A program made the position numbers and the translations under genes. The notes below the pieces were generated by a model. The model saw only the letters and a program-made list of their open reading frames with translations, ran no database searches and was not told the DNA's origin. From Escherichia coli (GTDB taxonomy: Bacteria; Pseudomonadota; Gammaproteobacteria; Enterobacterales; Enterobacteriaceae): a stretch of 64,000 nucleotides of DNA. Below, one piece after another: positions 1 to 13,075 of this stretch (its first letter is position 1; every line of letters begins with the position of its first letter). The stretch is taken from the NCBI RefSeq assembly GCF_009931435.1, contig NZ_CP043414.1; one strand, given 5' to 3'.

Positions 1-422
1 TCAATCACGCTCATCGCCGTGGCGGTTTTGCTTACCTGCGCCAGCGAGCGGTTTAGTTGTTGGAGGGGGAAAAGTCGCGGGTCGGGAAAGGCCGAGGCAA
101 ACGGAACTACCGACGGATCGCGACTGGCCTGCAACATATCAAAAATATAGGTGTTGATATCGACTGCTTCATCTCGAGTGACTGGAATGACTGTCGCTTT
201 CGGCATTTTTATTGCCTGTGGCGCAACGTAATAACCCGATTGCGGTCGCGCGATAATATATCCCTGACTTTCGAGCAACTGATAGGCATGGCTGACAGTC
301 ATAAAGCTCATGCCAGAAAGCGCCACCTGGTCACGCAACGAAGGCAAACGATCTCCGGGTTGCCAGATACCCGACGCAATCTGCTCGCGTAATTGTTCTG
401 CAAGCTGCTGGTATTTTTTCAT
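1..422 (-). CDS. ydcR: MocR/GntR-family regulator YdcR (HTH plus aminotransferase-like domain), N-terminal part; gene continues beyond window start
   Basis: Minus-strand translation from ATG at 422-420 reads MKKYQQLAEQLREQIASGIWQPGDRLPSLRDQVALSGMSFMTVSHAYQLLE..., a GntR-type winged HTH; no stop before position 1. Listed +strand ORF 57-392 is its antisense. Confidence 0.8.
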   Translation of the reverse strand, partial: MKKYQQLAEQLREQIASGIWQPGDRLPSLRDQVALSGMSFMTVSHAYQLLESQGYIIARPQSGYYVAPQAIKMPKATVIPVTRDEAVDINTYIFDMLQASRDPSVVPFASAFPDPRLFPLQQLNRSLAQVSKTATAMSVI

Positions 423-500
423 TATCGAATCGTTATTATGTGCAGGTGATTCGGCAGTCTATATCAGTTGTTAAAAATGACAACTTTTCATTAACTGTTA

Positions 501-626
<126 letters not shown>

Positions 627-835
627 GTACCCACAATAACACGAGGGGGTACAACAATGAACATCGGTAAAGCAATCATCAACTACGCAGCGCGTCGCAA
701 CATGGACATTACCTGATTGACGATGAGACCGTGGCGTTCTGGGAAGCGGATAACGATTGTGAATGGATGTTCTCCTACATGATTGGTAATGATGGTTTCC
801 TCCACTTTAAAGGCAATGTGTATCTGCTGTAGTGG

Positions 836-1656
<821 letters not shown>

Positions 1657-1700
1657 GTTGCATACAACGGCAACAGGAAACCGCGCCCTGAGTTTCTCAA

Positions 1701-2012
<312 letters not shown>

Positions 2013-2088
2013 AATGTCACCTGTTTTTGACTATGAGGCGATGATATCACCTCTATTCAGGTGGCCAAATTCAGTGTGCCACTACAGT

Positions 2089-2265
2089 ATGGCTAAGATG
2101 GAATCAGAGATTAAATCACTTAAAGCTGATAACGCCGCATTACGAAAGAGTTTAAAACTGATTGATGAGACTAATGCGGTTATGATGGATCATGTATTCC
2201 CTGAGTGGCGAAATGAAACTAAACCTACACAATATAAGAAACCTACACTTCGAGTGGTTGCATAA
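2089..2265 (+). CDS. Hypothetical 58-aa coiled-coil protein, possibly a gene fragment truncated by the adjacent IS
   Basis: ATG at 2089 directly abuts the IS end (2086) with no Shine-Dalgarno; reads MAKMESEIKSLKADNAALRKSLKLIDETNAVMMDHVFPEWRNETKPTQYKKPTLRVVA. The listed ORF 2014-2265 begins inside the IS terminus. Confidence 0.3.
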   Translation: MAKMESEIKSLKADNAALRKSLKLIDETNAVMMDHVFPEWRNETKPTQYKKPTLRVVA

Positions 2266-2269
2266 AAAA

Positions 2270-2296
2270 AGGGACTCCGAAGAGTCCCTAGTAAGT
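2270..2296 (-). terminator. Intrinsic terminator (minus strand)
   Basis: Hairpin GGGACTC-TTCG-GAGTCCC followed by a run of seven T on the minus strand. Confidence 0.65.
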
Positions 2297-2371
2297 TTAG
2301 GTTAGGTTTGCACAACAAAGATGAGGTTATAATGAACATAATGCTACATTATTCTTTAAAGCCAGAAAAAT

Positions 2372-2392
2372 AACCGCCCCGAAGGGCGGGAG
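2372..2392 (-). terminator. Intrinsic terminator (minus strand) downstream of the small membrane-protein genes
   Basis: Minus-strand hairpin CCGCCC-TTCG-GGGCGG followed by TTATTTTTCT. Confidence 0.6.
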
Positions 2393-2547
2393 GATTAATA
2401 CTCAATCTATACTTGTTATGTTTTTATGTTGTATAGATCACTGACTATGAAAACACTGTACTGGAGTGTGTTTTATGGCTTTTAATCGGGAATCCTCAAA
2501 GAAGATCCCCTGTTAATAACCATAAGGAGAAAAGGCAGATTACACTA

Positions 2548-2721
2548 TTATTTAGCATCCTTTTTACAGCAACTAAAAAGAATAAACAGGATTAAACATC
2601 CCCAGCCGTAAGGTGTACCAATTAGAAATTTGAAAAACACCACCATCGATATAAAAATCAATTTAATGCCAGCGACGATAGTCAAAAACAGCAGAGTAGC
2701 AAAGTAGACAAAAAGATCCAT
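2548..2721 (-). CDS. Small hydrophobic protein (57 aa, about two TM segments, basic C-terminus); not in ORF track (under 60 aa)
   Basis: Manual translation MDLFVYFATLLFLTIVAGIKLIFISMVVFFKFLIGTPYGWGCLILFILFSCCKKDAK; ATG 2721-2719, TAA stop 2550-2548; co-directional with upstream genes and followed by the terminator at 2372-2392. Confidence 0.45.
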   Translation of the reverse strand: MDLFVYFATLLFLTIVAGIKLIFISMVVFFKFLIGTPYGWGCLILFILFSCCKKDAK

Positions 2722-2770
2722 AGATAATCCTCTTTGAAAACGACCATCATCTATAGTTCAATTCATCGAT

Positions 2771-2953
2771 TTAATTAATGATACTTGAAAGCGTTACACA
2801 CAGCAGAAATGCCAATATGTGCCATGAATATACGATAGTTAATCCTACAGTAAGACAAATCAAAAATTCAACCATAGGTAAATCCTCAAATAAGAAAAAG
2901 GTTAGCGGGGGGTGATTCCCCCCGTAGACGTTGACCAGCTCAACATCTTTCAT
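2771..2953 (-). CDS. Small hydrophobic protein (60 aa, about two TM segments)
   Basis: ORF-track protein MKDVELVNVYGGNHPPLTFFLFEDLPMVEFLICLTVGLTIVYSWHILAFLLCVTLSSIIN; starts 21 nt after the stop of the Nu1-like gene. Confidence 0.5.
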   Translation of the reverse strand: MKDVELVNVYGGNHPPLTFFLFEDLPMVEFLICLTVGLTIVYSWHILAFLLCVTLSSIIN

Positions 2954-2973
2954 ACATTTATTTATAACGCGTT

Positions 2974-3525
2974 TTAAGACACATCAAATTCATCGTCTTC
3001 TTCTGGTTCTTGTTCCGGTTCATCCATTAATGGTAATTCTTCTTCCTCGTCTTCTCCCAAATCAGCATTTTCGAACAAGTCCCCTACTTCATTTAAACGA
3101 AGCTCGATGATCTCCCTTAGCTTATTCTTCAATGTTTTCTGATCAGTGGCGGATTCTAAAATTTCTAGGGCATCGATTGTGGCGATCTGCAAGATAGTCT
3201 GCTTCACCTTCCCACAATATTCAGCTAGTTCCTGTTCTACATACCCGACCGGAATCAGGAGATTCATTGCTTCCTGGTTCTCTCGTTCGGCTGCATCTGC
3301 TAATGCTCTCTCACGGCGTAATTTCTCTACGTCGATTTGTTCCTTGATAGAAGTTTCTTTAAGCGGGTTAATGATGTTCTTCAAGACCCAATCACACCCA
3401 GGCTTCGCCGGGACACGTCTTGTATTTGTGTTATAAGGTAGACCCCTTTCTAACCATTTCTTAGCGGCGTTAATTGTATAGCCGTATAAGCGGGAAATTT
3501 CTGTAAGGGTTAATTCTTCTTTCAT
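2974..3525 (-). CDS. Putative DNA-binding protein resembling phage terminase small subunit Nu1 (N-terminal winged HTH, acidic C-terminal tail); orphan, no large terminase nearby
   Basis: Translation MKEELTLTEISRLYGYTINAAKKWLERGLPYNT...EKLRRERALADAAERE...DEEEELPLMDEPEQEPEEDDEFDVS has the layout of lambda gpNu1 as recalled. Start set at the second ATG (3525) because a GGAGG lies about 9 nt upstream; the listed ORF begins at 3540. Confidence 0.55.
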   Translation of the reverse strand: MKEELTLTEISRLYGYTINAAKKWLERGLPYNTNTRRVPAKPGCDWVLKNIINPLKETSIKEQIDVEKLRRERALADAAERENQEAMNLLIPVGYVEQELAEYCGKVKQTILQIATIDALEILESATDQKTLKNKLREIIELRLNEVGDLFENADLGEDEEEELPLMDEPEQEPEEDDEFDVS

Positions 3526-3886
3526 CCGGTTATCCTCCATTAAATTTGCGTAAAATTATTTATCTGATCTACGCATTCAGGAGAGCGCCTAAAACGCTTT
3601 CTAACGACATGAAAGATCTAGGCGTGGAAAGGAATTGGCGGGTGTTAATAGTCGCGTAGCGACCGCGCTGGTGGGCTGCACTGCACCTGTTTTGAAATCT
3701 CACACGCACATCAAATACCGGGGTGCCGAAAACTCCCTTTATTTCATCCGCGGAACAGTACCTTTTTAATTTGTCAAGCATTAATTTCTTAATTTAATTA
3801 CTAAATCTCACCCCAATAATTGAAAAAATATCAAAAATCAATAAAGTAAGCATCTAAAAGTCAGTCCATACCAAAAGAGGTATAAA

Positions 3887-4666
3887 ATGAAAAACATTAT
3901 CGCTGCTATCGTGCTTTCTGCTACTGCTTTCGGTGCTGATGCTGCGTCCTTTGATTGCACTAAGGCTATAACCAAATCAGAGAAGTTTATTTGTGCTAAT
4001 GAGTCAATCTCCGCACTGGATTCTAAACTTCATGAAGTATATGTTAAGGCTGTTAAGATTGATCCGTCTCTTAAACAAGAGCAACGCAACTGGAATAAAA
4101 CTGTTCGTGATACAATGATCAATATCGGGCAGATTCAGCCACTGGAGGCTGTATACAACGCTCAAATCCAAAACTTGATGAATGTATTATCTAAAGAAGA
4201 AACCGCGTCAGAGAGCGTTACAGATGATTCTGCAAAGGTTGAAGAAGAACAACCGAAACAGGAAGAAGTAAAGAAACTGAATGTTACCGCGATTTACGCA
4301 TGTACTGCAAAATTTACATGGAAAGTTATCGATGGTGAGGAAACAGAAGCTGTAAAAGATTACTTATACGGAAACAAAGATCATGATGATAAAGGCGGTA
4401 AACTTAAAATCAAACTGGTAGATGATGTTCCTGTGTATTTTGTTTACACCGACAAATATAACGTTTATAAATCACCACTCAAACCAGCTAAAGAAAATCC
4501 AAACGCAATGGAGGGTAAATCCAAACAGGATACTATTGGACGTGTTAACACTTATAACATCTGGGTAAGCAAAAAAGGTGACATGCGTCTTGAAGTTATT
4601 GAACCAAAATATGATTCTGAATATAAACACACTCAATTTGCATGTGACATGGTAGACGCAGAGTAA
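3887..4666 (+). CDS. Secreted/periplasmic protein with N-terminal DUF1311 (LprI-like lysozyme-inhibitor fold) domain and an uncharacterised C-terminal domain
   Basis: Signal peptide MKNIIAAIVLSATAFGADA; motif FDCTKAITKSEKFICANESISALDSKLHEVY typical of DUF1311; acidic linker; Shine-Dalgarno AGAGG 8 nt upstream. Confidence 0.75.
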   Translation: MKNIIAAIVLSATAFGADAASFDCTKAITKSEKFICANESISALDSKLHEVYVKAVKIDPSLKQEQRNWNKTVRDTMINIGQIQPLEAVYNAQIQNLMNVLSKEETASESVTDDSAKVEEEQPKQEEVKKLNVTAIYACTAKFTWKVIDGEETEAVKDYLYGNKDHDDKGGKLKIKLVDDVPVYFVYTDKYNVYKSPLKPAKENPNAMEGKSKQDTIGRVNTYNIWVSKKGDMRLEVIEPKYDSEYKHTQFACDMVDAE

Positions 4667-5226
4667 GAGGTGAAATGATGCAATTCAATAGCATGAAGAT
4701 TACTCAAAAATGGTGGGATGCGATGAAAGCTAACCACCAGAACGATATTAATTAAGTAACATTTTAGATATACAGCACCCAGCTAACAGATCACCTTTTA
4801 TGGATTTCATTATAACCCCTTTGATCTGGAAACTATGTTAATTAGTTGATTTCTAAGCCTTGTCCTTGTGATGGGGCTTTTTATTGCAAAATTTTTAGTT
4901 ATTTTGGGTTGACTACATTCGGGTTGCCAATTCGCCTGGCTAACTCTTGCTGAGTGATTTCTGACTGTAAAAAAGCATTTAACAGCAATACCTTAGAGGC
5001 GACGCTCAAAGGCACTTCAATAAAGTGATCGTGACTATTTAATGGCGAAGTTTACCTCCGTGTGTAATGTGCTCGAAAATAGCACTAAATCGCCGCAACG
5101 GCAGAATGCAATGCAAAATCAGGAAGGAAGATTCCAGAATTTCTTTGCGCTAATTTGCAAAACTGAATAATAACCTCAAGAAACGATCGGCATCATAGCG
5201 GCAAAAGGTCAGAAAAAGGTGGCGGG

Positions 5227-5457
5227 ATGTTTTCGAAGGCGTTATCGGTTGTCTTATTAACGTGTGCACTGTTCTCAGGACAACTCATGGCAGGGCACAA
5301 AGGACATGAATTTATGTGGGTAAAGAATGTGGATCATCAGCTGCGTCATGAAGCGGACAGCGATGAATTGCGTGCCGTGGCGGAAGAGTCGGCGGAAGGT
5401 TTGCGCGAGCATTTTTACTGGCAAAAATCGCGCAAACCAGAAGCAGGACAGCATTGA
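5227..5457 (+). CDS. yncJ: Small secreted protein YncJ
   Basis: 76-aa ORF MFSKALSVVLLTCALFSGQLMAGHKGHEF...WQKSRKPEAGQH, near-identical to E. coli YncJ as recalled. Confidence 0.9.
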   Translation: MFSKALSVVLLTCALFSGQLMAGHKGHEFMWVKNVDHQLRHEADSDELRAVAEESAEGLREHFYWQKSRKPEAGQH

Positions 5458-9417: not shown

Positions 9418-10086
9418 TTACTTTTTGTTAACGTCAAACATAGTGGCATCGGTCGCCATGTCATCAATAACTTGTTTAATATTTTCGAAAGCCATTGGCG
9501 TACTTTCGTTATTCAGGTCTTTACCTTCGCCCTGACGAACGACTTTGATAACCGGTTTATTAGTAGCTGCATCAATCAGCTCACCTTCAAAATACAGGCG
9601 AGTATCCATGGTACGGTGGCCCGTCGCCATTTGCGTCCCCGCGACCACTAATGCGACAGGAACCACTTCATAGAATTGCAGCCCTTCTTTGCTGGTATCA
9701 ACACCGGTAATGGCCCCACGGAAAATCAGACTACGCGGCCCAGCGGTGGTAACCAGTGGTTTACGCTGCGCAATCGCTTCTTTCATTTCGGTGTTGGTAT
9801 AACTCAAAATTTTATCCAGAACTTTCTGCCCTACCTGGGTAGATGGTTTCGGTACCGGATAATAAGTGACTGGGTTCCAGACGATGCTGTCATATTTGCT
9901 TTGATCAAAACTCGGGTCTACCCAACGTAAAACAGGTTTACCTGTTGCTGAGGTTGTTTCTTTTAAATCAGAGTAATTGTTTAAAAAACCAGAATATTTA
10001 TCTGGCTGGGTGATTTTAGAGGCACAACCAGACAGAGCCAACAAGCCGCATAAAGCTGCAACTTTCGCAATTGATGTGGTACGCAT
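9418..10086 (-). CDS. ydcL: Lipoprotein YdcL
   Basis: 222-aa ORF with lipobox (LALSGC). Confidence 0.9.
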   Translation of the reverse strand: MRTTSIAKVAALCGLLALSGCASKITQPDKYSGFLNNYSDLKETTSATGKPVLRWVDPSFDQSKYDSIVWNPVTYYPVPKPSTQVGQKVLDKILSYTNTEMKEAIAQRKPLVTTAGPRSLIFRGAITGVDTSKEGLQFYEVVPVALVVAGTQMATGHRTMDTRLYFEGELIDAATNKPVIKVVRQGEGKDLNNESTPMAFENIKQVIDDMATDATMFDVNKK

Positions 10087-12094: not shown

Positions 12095-13075
12095 ATGCGC
12101 AAATATCGTCTAAGTGAAGAACAGCGAGCCTTTAGTTATCAGGATGATGGCACTAAAAAAAGTGTGTTATTACGGCAAATTATCGCCATGAGCGATTTTA
12201 ACGATGTGATAGCAGGAACCGCTGGCGGCTGGATCGATCGCGAAACGGTGTTAGCGCAGGAAGGTAATTGCTGGATTTACGATCAGAATGCTATTGCGTT
12301 CGGCGGAACGGTGATTTCCGGTAATACGCGTATCACCGGCACCAGCGTCCTTTGGGGAGAGGTTTACGCAACGGATAACGTCTGGATCGATAATAGTGAA
12401 GTCAGTCAGGGCGCATATATAAGTGACAGTGTCACCATTCGTGACTCATTAGTTTGCGGTCAATGTAGAATATTTGGTCACGCCTTAATTGATCAACATT
12501 CTATGATCGTCGCCGCGCAAGGCTTAACCTCCAACCATCAACTCCTGCTACAAATTTATGATCGCGCAAGGGTTAGCGCCTCGCGTATTGTCCACCAGGC
12601 ACAAATTTATGGCGATGCCGTCGTCCGGTATGCTTTTATTGAACATCGCGCCGAAATTTTTGATTTTGCCAGTATTGAAGGTAATGAAGAGAACAACGTC
12701 TGGCTATGCGATTGCGCTAAAGTCTACGGTCACGCGCAGGTGAAAGCTGGCATAGAAGAAGATGCCATTCCGACGATTCATTACAGTTCGCAGGTAGCGG
12801 AATATGCCATTGTGGAAGGTAATTGTGTGTTAAAACATCATGTCTTGATTGGCGGAAAGGCAGTGGTACGTGGCGGACCGATTCTGCTCGACGAGCACGT
12901 TGTAATACAAGGTGAGAGCCGTATTACAGGTGCGGTGATAATTGAAAACCATGTGGAGTTGACCGACCACGCCGTCGTTGAAGCCTTTGATGGCGACACG
13001 GTTCATGTCCGTGGTCCAAAAGTCATTAACGGCGAAGAGCGCATTACGCGAACGCCGCTGGCAGGGTTATTGTGA
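12095..13075 (+). CDS. ydcK: Hexapeptide-repeat protein YdcK
   Basis: 326-aa ORF with left-handed beta-helix repeats. Confidence 0.9.

Follow-up and report, generated by a model that had tools for sequence, protein, structure and literature searches.

A stretch of 64,000 nucleotides of Escherichia coli DNA (contig NZ_CP043414.1; hereafter the window) contains three co-directional minus-strand open reading frames, at 2974–3525, 2771–2953 and 2548–2721, separated by gaps of 20 and 49 nt. A preliminary description had read them as a protein with the layout of the phage terminase small subunit Nu1 and two membrane proteins of 57–60 aa, placed in the hicAB slot, and had offered either a lysis, toxin or abortive-infection module or a satellite remnant as their possible nature. 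Is this a functional unit in its own right, or what is left of something larger? The region is AT-rich as described (GC content 0.35–0.43 over 2001–5000, against ~0.48–0.52 in the flanks), and the slot is the one proposed, as fragments of hicB flank the locus at 501–626 and 4839–5050. The analysis below indicates that the three-gene locus is an ordinary phage remnant and no self-standing toxin or defence module. Positions 627–4838 are very probably the stump of a ~35-kb prophage inserted in hicB, with the 183-aa gene as its Nu1-type terS and the small genes as accessory cargo.

Organization of the prophage remnant

On the attR side, the C-terminal fragment of hicB (501–626, minus strand), assigned from the PGAP annotation of a twin strain and from the match to one of the loci used for comparison (L004; these loci are designated by L and a number), represents the host side of the junction. 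It is followed by the first 57 codons (657–826, plus strand) of an attR-proximal prophage gene for a 90-aa protein (phrog_6147; 100% identity by tblastn), which is cut off by an insertion sequence. This 1259-bp element of the IS3 family (828–2086, minus strand) was recognized by its orfA and orfB translations and by the PGAP name ‘IS3 family transposase’, and has imperfect terminal inverted repeats of ~26 nt. On its other side, a convergent prophage gene that was truncated by the IS survives in its last 58 codons (2089–2265, plus strand), which encode the C-terminus; the gene encodes 80 aa in L002, where 13531–13704 matches with 90% identity by tblastn. A PADLOC match of the ORF at 2014–2265 to Cas11e was spurious, this ORF being the IS end fused to the truncated phage gene. 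Towards attL, the prophage carries as cargo a gene for a secreted, lysozyme-inhibitor-like protein of the LprI family (3887–4666, plus strand; PGAP name; phrog_14799, E 4e-109), which is swapped for other cargo in L002, L005 and L052. An internal hicB fragment (4839–5050, minus strand; L004 match and PGAP annotation) marks the host side of attL, and hicA is absent beside it.

Window positions 1–827 match L004 12890–13717 at 97%, and 4839–5050 match L004 48669–48880 at 96%. The IS lies between the two points, 827 and 2265, at which collinearity with the intact prophage is lost, and ~32 kb of prophage DNA is absent from the window by this comparison. The parts kept are attL, the LprI-family gene, a conserved non-coding region, terS, the small ORFs and two terminators. 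An IS-associated deletion, with the IS3-family element at its junction, would have removed the rest in this strain, namely the early region, the gpA terminase, the head, tail and lysis genes and the recombinase. The locus resembles E. coli cryptic prophage remnants produced by IS-associated deletion in its split att-flanking host gene fragments and the IS at the breakpoint, but differs from other such remnants in being very small, its two stretches of phage DNA measuring ~2.6 kb and ~0.2 kb. A tblastn search of the remainder of the 64-kb window turned up nothing else from this phage family, neither a large terminase nor a portal nor any further protein. The description of the Nu1-like gene as an orphan, correct for the window, applies only to this strain, as the related loci demonstrate.

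An intact prophage family with the same unit

In strain 24AR0357, hicB harbours a complete prophage that has the genes for recombinase, endolysin, tail, capsid, portal and gpA. In the remaining loci examined, from E. coli, Salmonella and Proteus, terS comes first among the genes at one end of a ~35-kb prophage, and in all of them it lies ~6 kb upstream of the genes for a gpA-type large terminase, portal and capsid. Throughout the family, the ~6 kb between terS and gpA is taken up by early or regulatory genes. These prophages encode a large serine recombinase and are inserted in hicB, ycdX or codB; the arrangement of terS and gpA recurs at the ycdX and codB sites, in Salmonella, in Proteus, in diverged E. 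coli and in a relative with 42% identity. The prophage gpA is a full-length homologue of lambda gpA (phrog_15, E 6e-135; GpA_ATPase and GpA_nuclease). The preliminary description had held that invariable occurrence of the three genes inside intact lambdoid prophages beside a large terminase would contradict an independent module, and this is essentially what was found: of ten records taken at even intervals along the E. coli ranking, nine had gpA under the same match. The proposed lysis, toxin or abortive-infection module, which outside this strain sits within a full prophage with gpA ~6 kb away, is not sustained. The locus is a remnant, as also suggested at the outset, but it originates from a complete temperate phage, not from a satellite.

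No close relative of the prophage family was found among 50,697 deposited phage genomes, and a literature search on hicB- or ycdX-integrating serine-recombinase phages and on orphan Nu1 genes gave nothing relevant. The locus points to an uncharacterised temperate phage family of E. coli, Salmonella and Proteus, integrating by a serine recombinase at hicB, ycdX or codB, in which a Nu1-type terS is consistently uncoupled from gpA by an early region. For follow-up, the family offers an exchangeable slot for small membrane proteins and a covarying hairpin element. In strain rl0044, a prophage of this family has undergone a second, independent truncation.

The 183-aa protein is a diverged Nu1-type terminase small subunit

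The start of terS (2974–3525, minus strand) was set at 3525, which is preceded by a GGAGGA ribosome-binding site; an ATG further upstream, at 3540, is not conserved. The encoded 183-aa protein matched phrog_57, ‘terminase small subunit’, over its full length (E 4.4e-13; profile positions 5–190 of 199). A profile of its family (A1) aligned with lambda Nu1 in hhalign with a probability of 94.3% and E 1.1e-7 (residues 4–91 against 2–109), and a wider profile (A2) matched the lambda TerS structures 6hn7_B (1.8e-16) and 1j9i (1.4e-14). In a Pfam scan of the protein alone, nothing reached the threshold, Phage_Nu1 (PF07471) included, and PDB searches with the single sequence or the A1 profile gave only sub-threshold Nu1 matches and a spurious epimerase match. 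The comparison with Phage_Nu1 that had been recommended came out positive for its relatives, 27 of the 71 retrieved by profile matching this family. The name ‘terminase small subunit’ is already attached to close homologues in some sources. In the non-structural regions of the prophage, no other protein matched a TerS family.

The Nu1-like layout noted earlier was borne out by an AF2 model, which consists of a winged helix-turn-helix (HTH), long helices and a disordered acidic tail. Residues 4–56 are predicted to form a strand, two helices, a wing strand and a helix (pLDDT ~75–80), and the tail ends in a conserved EFDVS (…EEDDEFDVS). A Foldseek search with the whole-chain model placed BldC, 1j9i, 7lw0 and Xis on top at a non-significant E of ~1; in such a comparison the long helices dilute the small DNA-binding domain. 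From the profile and transitive evidence, we conclude that the 183-aa protein is a diverged terminase small subunit of the lambda Nu1 type; sequence comparison establishes both its homology and its synteny.

TerS and lambda gpNu1 (PF07471; PDB 1J9I and 6HN7) have in common an N-terminal winged HTH followed by a helical segment, a length of ~180 aa, a gpA-type large terminase as the partner and, directly upstream of the gene, a conserved non-coding region where lambda has cos. Unlike gpNu1, the window TerS has no GGGKG wing loop, possesses a long acidic C-terminal tail, stays below the Pfam threshold and is partnerless in this window; moreover, its gene lies ~6 kb from gpA in the family rather than overlapping with it, which is atypical of lambda-like phages. 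By analogy with lambda, we infer DNA sites and a contact with gpA for TerS: in the intact phage, the N-terminal winged HTH would bind candidate cos sites in the conserved region just upstream, the helical middle would oligomerise, and the acidic C-terminus would recruit the gpA-type large terminase encoded ~6 kb off.

A conserved non-coding region upstream of terS

An alignment of nine loci, including Salmonella, revealed a conserved non-coding region upstream of terS (3541–3800, minus strand). It includes a TTGACA box (3768–3778), the palindrome GCGGTCGCTACGCGAC (3651–3666) and an inverted repeat, TGCGTA-N17-TACGCA (3547–3575). In lambda, cos sits upstream of Nu1, and by this analogy the region is a candidate for a promoter plus a cos or TerS-binding region. 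A promoter scan called no sigma-70 promoter on the minus strand, and neither a cos cleavage site nor a TerS-binding repeat could be established, a search upstream of terS giving only weak 9-nt repeats. Related sequences accounted for 22 of the 35 IMG/VR contigs carrying GCGGTCGCTACGCGAC; those checked resemble predicted prophage regions, so that the contig ends are uninformative about virion termini.

Small genes in an exchangeable slot after terS

The terS stop codon is immediately followed by two tandem hairpins (2926–2948 and 2906–2924, minus strand) and then a T-rich tract; E. coli, Salmonella, Proteus and L012 all retain the hairpin structures. They form a terminator- or attenuator-like boundary of an exchangeable small-ORF cassette. 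The 60-aa ORF reported previously (2771–2953) was mis-delimited with respect to these structures: its codons 1–26 cross the two hairpins and the ribosome-binding site of the real gene, and the hairpins explain the ‘VYGGNHPP’ codons of the spurious extension. The ATG of the 60-aa ORF is GTG in L001 and L005, and in L006 and L007 a 2-nt gap shifts it out of frame. The real ORF (2771–2875, minus strand) starts at an internal ATG at 2875, with a GAGGA ribosome-binding site 7 nt upstream. In all 17 of the other cassette loci (six protein variants), the ORF starting there encodes a 33-aa peptide with a single TM segment. The window allele, 34 aa in length, has its C-terminal half frameshifted by a 1-bp deletion at ~2824 that is present in the window and in the twin strain. 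The 33-aa peptide gene is under purifying selection (pooled pN/pS 0.17), and the peptide has a Salmonella homologue (z = 8.8; 0 of 2000 shuffles).

The 57-aa protein (2548–2721, minus strand; AGAGGA ribosome-binding site) is a real accessory membrane protein, in which a GTPYGW turn joins two hydrophobic segments and the tail is short and basic. Of the pair of two-TM proteins initially proposed, this one stands, but its neighbour gives way to the shorter, single-TM peptide. The 57-aa protein is intact in all cassette-A loci (nine protein variants; pooled pN/pS 0.23, indicating purifying selection), and shows weak similarity to a 60-aa Salmonella protein in the equivalent slot (z = 3.2). The Salmonella counterparts of the two small genes stand in swapped order. 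A word-indexed protein search with the 57-aa protein returned only near-identical E. coli copies, and comparison of the small-protein variants with PADLOC, NCBIfam and PHROGs found no family.

The slot after terS is exchangeable. Other loci have membrane proteins of 92–94 aa or 74 aa at this position, and in L052, the 42%-identical relative, the slot is empty and terS is retained. No separate promoter was found for the small ORFs, and thus they are probably read through from terS. From these sequence comparisons, the small genes are best explained as accessory cargo in an exchangeable slot between the hairpins following terS and the conserved 3′ region. We infer that their products most likely have a membrane function that benefits the phage, such as superinfection exclusion or membrane conditioning. 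Phage morons and small superinfection-exclusion membrane proteins, such as HK97 gp15 and T4 Imm, provide a parallel. The small proteins share with them the small size, hydrophobicity, poor conservation and exchangeability, as well as the location near a prophage end beside other cargo; they differ in having no detected promoter of their own and no sequence similarity to the described families.

Alternative interpretations of the three genes

Because small hydrophobic proteins are typical of membrane effectors, and the unit is intact save for one frameshift and has its own terminators, the three genes could be taken as a self-standing toxin, abortive-infection or defence module, retained in the hicAB slot for its own benefit, in which a DNA-binding sensor or regulator controls two membrane-disrupting effectors. 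Cargo and defence genes also cluster beside terS in relatives, for example a gene for a TIR-domain protein in L052. This interpretation is nevertheless highly improbable: the large protein is a full-length TerS homologue, nearly all carriers have the unit at the end of complete prophages, one ‘effector’ is frameshifted exactly in the strain with the orphan unit, and terS persists even where the contents of the small-ORF slot differ or are missing. PADLOC returned only the mad1 HTH for TerS (E 0.005, over 31 residues) and nothing for the small proteins. What appeared as a DNA-binder and membrane-protein ‘module’ in a toxin-antitoxin slot is a prophage stump, and offers no new defence or toxin system to pursue. 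Another proposal would make the 183-aa protein an Xis- or MerR-like regulator, a directionality factor for the serine recombinase, or a packaging redirector resembling satellite Rpp. Its N-terminal fold is indeed common to Xis, BldC and MerR proteins, its gene adjoins attL and would, once the phage is circular, face the recombinase on the opposite side of attP, and the A2 profile also matches RppC (9.5e-9). RppC of the cos-type E. coli satellites called PICIs (PDB 6HLK) likewise has an N-terminal domain like the Nu1 DNA-binding domain, is related to TerS, and is encoded away from a large terminase. Against these points, the TerS-family homology extends over the whole length, beyond the HTH, and reaches lambda Nu1 residues 2–109; RppC is matched neither by the protein itself nor by its own family profile, and the protein is closer to Nu1 than it is to RppC. 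The int, alpA and pri-rep context of the PICIs is missing. The surroundings are those of a 35-kb phage with a full structural set, rather than a 10–15-kb island, and these complete phages have their own gpA and no other TerS candidate. We regard a regulator or redirector as very unlikely.

The small membrane proteins could alternatively be a holin/antiholin pair for lysis timing, expressed late with terS. In lambda, lysis and terminase genes are neighbours around cos, and holins typically come from different sequence families; in every close family member examined here, the slot encodes one or more small multi-TM proteins, which belong to different sequence families. The C-terminal tails are basic, the 92-aa variant faintly matches NCBIfam ‘holin_1’ (E 0.063), and the gene just upstream of the endolysin does not encode a membrane protein; the missing separate promoter would imply co-transcription with a late gene. 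However, the small genes are not adjacent to the endolysin, and the lysis region already has two candidate membrane proteins, a 92-aa TM and coiled-coil protein and a 56-aa hydrophobic protein. The slot is also empty in L052, which keeps its lysozyme gene, and the holin_1 match is far below the cut-off. A holin pair is an unlikely assignment. A bacteriocin or microcin precursor with a double-glycine leader (MKDVELVNVYGG↓…), encoded by the 60-aa ORF and accompanied by the 57-aa protein as its immunity protein, was considered as well, a leader-like motif being present together with a weak match to an NCBIfam bacteriocin-like peptide (E 0.089). We rejected it, as neither the start codon nor the reading frame of the ‘leader’ is conserved, with a 2-nt indel inside it in relatives. 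The ‘YGG’ codons correspond to a G6/C6 hairpin, a ribosome-binding site lies inside the ORF before Met27, and the annotated neighbourhood has no C39-peptidase exporter; the precursor has next to no probability.

As a prophage remnant, the three-gene unit is most likely inert in this strain, because nothing in the 64-kb window encodes a large subunit with which TerS could pair; a compatible large terminase could, however, come from another prophage located beyond the window. It is quite improbable that the retained cos-like region together with the intact TerS, or the cassette after terS, is still active. If so, the cos-like region and TerS might hamper incoming phages of the same family or be exploited by them, whether by decoy binding, by the formation of mixed TerS oligomers or by packaging of the neighbouring chromosome. 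Alternatively, the small membrane proteins of the exchangeable cassette might exclude superinfecting relatives, and the conserved downstream hairpin element would then be an RNA regulator of the cassette.

Conserved structures downstream of the small genes

This downstream element is a conserved non-coding stretch (2395–2547, minus strand) with two hairpins (2487–2512 and 2404–2439), as defined by the A3 alignment and RNAalifold. Comparison of E. coli, Salmonella and Proteus shows covariation in the stems of the hairpins, and the second hairpin has an invariant A-rich loop. In this second hairpin, 7 of the 9 pairs have changes on both sides according to RNAalifold; the sole broken cells in its alignment belong to two E. 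coli loci with a gap of 1 nt in the alignment. The stretch could be a 3′UTR or a small RNA. When the prophage was searched for sequences with which the conserved hairpin loop might pair in trans, only the trivial antisense match emerged, and an Rfam search of 2200–5300 gave no match. With regard to a type I toxin-antitoxin system, hydrophobic peptides are present and the structured RNA-like region lies downstream on the same strand; no antisense promoter was called, and Rfam again offered no match.

The intrinsic terminator with which the unit had been said to end exists, as a hairpin at 2374–2389 (minus strand; CCGCCC-TTCG-GGGCGG and a T-run, 2366–2393 in the terminator scan), but it is 158 nt past the last stop codon, with the conserved structured stretch in between. 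It is conserved in all nine aligned loci, with compensatory stem changes in the Proteus locus. The same scan identified a second intrinsic-terminator-like hairpin with a T-run (2264–2289, hairpin 2270–2289; minus strand), which is likewise conserved with compensatory changes.

The locus as a prophage remnant

Three minus-strand ORFs were found by ORF translation: one of 183 aa (2974-3525; terS, for terminase small subunit, with TerS as its product), one of 60 aa as first drawn (2771-2953) and one of 57 aa (2548-2721). A terminator scan revealed two terminator-like hairpins on the same strand (2374-2389 and 2270-2289). The GC content is 0.35-0.43 across 2001-5000, as compared with ~0.48-0.52 outside. 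In a twin strain that is 99.9% identical, PGAP places hicB fragments on both sides of the locus and annotates the 183-aa gene as the one 'hypothetical protein', alongside an 'LprI family' gene and an 'IS3 family transposase'. The preliminary description was therefore correct about the ORFs, the terminator, the AT-rich region and the hicAB slot, but not about the 60-aa ORF as drawn.

Window positions 1-827 are collinear with the attR side of an intact prophage, ending at codon 57 of its first gene, and 2265-4257 with its attL-side 2 kb; 4839-5050 is hicB sequence. The phage pieces flank an IS3-family element of 1,259 bp (828-2086; imperfect terminal inverted repeats of ~26 nt), which adjoins the 58 codons that remain of a convergent phage gene (2089-2265). 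About 32 kb of the phage is absent, and no further protein of it is encoded anywhere in the 64-kb window, in agreement with the reported lack of a large terminase, portal or structural gene nearby. The locus is thus an ordinary prophage stump, as the 'remnant' reading had proposed.

The attL side (4839-5226) retains no more than an internal piece of hicB and lacks hicA, whereas among other lysogens hicA is intact in strain rl0044 and frameshifted in locus L001. Prophage insertion thus knocks out an antitoxin gene, after which the toxin gene paired with it deteriorates or disappears.

The 183-aa protein as a diverged Nu1-type TerS

The 183-aa protein matches PHROG 57 ('terminase small subunit'; E 4.4e-13, profile positions 5-190 of 199), while by itself it falls below threshold in Pfam, NCBIfam and PADLOC. 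Its close family (54-96% identity) was found in E. coli, Salmonella and Proteus only, and a few sources already label close homologues 'terminase small subunit'. A search of 1.8 billion representatives with a profile built from this family (A1) yielded 216 proteins, and the 71 full-length proteins among them constituted a wider profile (A2). Pfam Phage_Nu1 matched 27 of the 71, and A2 matched the lambda TerS structures 6hn7_B (1.8e-16) and 1j9i (1.4e-14); lambda Nu1 residues 2-109 aligned directly even with the narrow A1 profile (probability 94.3%). In the AlphaFold model (pLDDT 73), a winged HTH at the N-terminus is followed by long helices and an acidic tail that is disordered; the model's best Foldseek matches were BldC, 1j9i, 7lw0 and Xis-type wHTH proteins, none of them significant. 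F180 and EFDVS form an invariant C-terminal motif in the family. These profile, alignment and model results uphold the earlier structural description (Nu1-like, winged HTH, acidic tail) and, as judged from sequence and predicted fold, identify the protein as a diverged Nu1-type TerS.

Intact prophages in other strains

Megablast against 5,426 complete E. coli genomes found the region in 63, chromosomal in every case. In strain 24AR0357, hicB is interrupted by a prophage of ~35 kb that has this region at one end. The prophage begins with the LprI-like gene, terS and the small ORFs, then has convergent genes and a 1.4-kb gap free of ORFs; the Rha-type regulator comes next, followed by gpA terminase, portal, protease-capsid fusion, tail genes, endolysin and, last, a serine recombinase of 559 aa. 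The layout is the same at the ycdX and codB insertion sites, and in Salmonella, Proteus, a 54%-identical E. coli lineage and a 42%-identical relative (L052). Every intact member examined has, ~6 kb downstream of terS, a gpA-type large terminase, a full-length homologue of lambda gpA; a TerS family search found no second TerS among the prophage's other non-structural proteins. A query of 8.5 kb that covered terS through gpA likewise matched 63 genomes; of 10 records taken at even intervals down the ranking, 9 had gpA under the same joined match as terS. Remnants were seen in the window's lineage, in rl0044 and in the weakest match of this sample. Thus, 'orphan' describes the Nu1-like gene in the window's lineage but not elsewhere, including other species.

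The rl0044 locus (L005 14717-15076) is an independent truncation, in which the gene for the Rha-type regulator is the last of the phage, with a patD fragment fused behind it and host genes ydcR-ydcV lost. The ORF-free gap of ~1.4 kb lies among the early genes of every intact member (L001 14875-16243) and is deleted in the window. It contains tandem repeats of 13-21 nt (L001 15221-15258 and 15502-15568) and is a candidate iteron region or origin of replication; the prophage yielded no recognisable replication protein.

Small membrane proteins 3′ of terS

We aligned the region 3′ of terS across relatives. The ATG of the 60-aa ORF is GTG in some of them, its frame is broken by a 2-nt gap in others, and its first 26 codons run through a conserved pair of hairpins (2926-2948 and 2906-2924) as well as a ribosome-binding site, GAGGA. 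It was therefore rejected as a gene; from the alignment, it is an over-extension of a gene beginning at an internal ATG (2875). The product of that gene in 17 other loci (6 variants) is a peptide of 33 aa with a single TM segment, MVEFLIYLAVGLTIVYSLAHIGISTVCNAFKYH; a 1-bp deletion replaces its C-terminal half only in the window and its twin. The 57-aa ORF is intact throughout the loci carrying this pair (9 protein variants) and is a real gene. Of the two two-TM proteins first proposed, only the 57-aa one therefore stands. Both small genes look constrained: pooled pN/pS, from pairwise counts that are not independent, was 0.17 (33-aa gene) and 0.23 (57-aa gene), compared with 0.27 in terS.

Salmonella prophages have counterparts of both genes in swapped order: homology is clear for the 33-aa peptide (z = 8.8, 0/2000 shuffles), and a 60-aa two-segment protein is weakly similar to the 57-aa protein (z = 3.2). 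In other family members the slot is occupied by an unrelated protein of 92-94 aa or by a protein of 74 aa; in L052 it is empty, and no slot protein was recognised as a family member in any library searched. The slot thus holds small membrane proteins that are accessory and exchangeable. The minus strand of the window gave no sigma-70 promoter call, and relatives have only weak candidates; the small ORFs are therefore probably expressed when transcription of terS runs on through the hairpins.

Superinfection exclusion or a similar accessory function at the membrane is our preferred reading, because the small proteins are variable, dispensable and located beside other cargo (LprI in the window; YuaX and a TIR-domain protein in L052). 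The main alternative, a holin/antiholin pair, is made less likely by the candidate membrane proteins in the lysis region, by the distance of the small genes from the endolysin and by the empty slot in L052. Of the initial interpretation, 'Nu1-like' and 'remnant' survive, whereas a self-standing module of DNA-binder and membrane proteins is not supported.

A cargo hotspot adjoins terS at the end of the prophage (window 3887-4666 (+); L052 7460-8643). In the window it is occupied by an LprI-family secreted protein; L002 and L005 have an unrelated protein of 101 aa there, and L052 has YuaX with a CAP12/TIR-domain protein, likely a defence gene.

Non-coding elements and putative TerS function

A ~270-nt non-coding region 5′ of terS is conserved; in it lie a TTGACA box, an AT-rich tract bounded by an inverted repeat, and the palindrome GCGGTCGCTACGCGAC (3651-3666). 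TerS has Nu1 homology and, by comparison of loci, conserved co-occurrence with gpA. By analogy with lambda, it would bind sites in this upstream region, a candidate cos, oligomerise via its helices and recruit gpA through its tail. The window copy, with gpA deleted, cannot package DNA by itself.

Tandem hairpins right after the terS stop (window 2906-2948 (-); L001 ~12975-13015; L007 ~9840-9880) are kept as structures family-wide; the loop of the G/C hairpin is AGAACAT in L001 and ATGTTCT in L007, an exact inversion. A conserved non-coding stretch of ~150 nt separates the last small ORF from the first terminator (window 2395-2547 (-); L008 9997-10295; L011 9879-10156). It forms two hairpins with stems covarying between E. 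coli, Salmonella and Proteus, the second having a nearly constant 18-nt A-rich loop (AACAUAAAAACAUAACAA). It had no Rfam match, and no trans target was found inside the prophage; it may be a 3′UTR-derived or stand-alone small RNA.

Comparison with known systems

The closest known entity to the window TerS is lambda gpNu1, from which it differs in scoring below the Pfam threshold, lacking the GGGKG wing loop and having a long acidic tail. Unlike the lambda gene, terS in this family is consistently apart from gpA, with the early region between. An Rpp-type satellite protein was rejected because the gene belongs to a 35-kb phage with a complete structural gene set. PADLOC matched no system, a literature search found no paper on this phage family, and no close relative was present among deposited phage genomes, where the best large-terminase match, in a record that may be chimeric, was 43% identical. 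That record, PQ671644.1 ('Escherichia phage DCP80'; 141 kb, filed under Straboviridae), has the lambda-type gpA at 1.7 kb and, at 25.8 kb, a terS-like gene that follows an endolysin; the assembly may include a relative of this phage family, with terS and terL again apart. Another orphan terS-like gene, 36% identical, occurs on a metagenomic contig (L053 3549-5500), directly 5′ of an Hcp gene and a gene for a Tlde1-domain T6SS effector, with a Phage_Mu_F fragment alongside.
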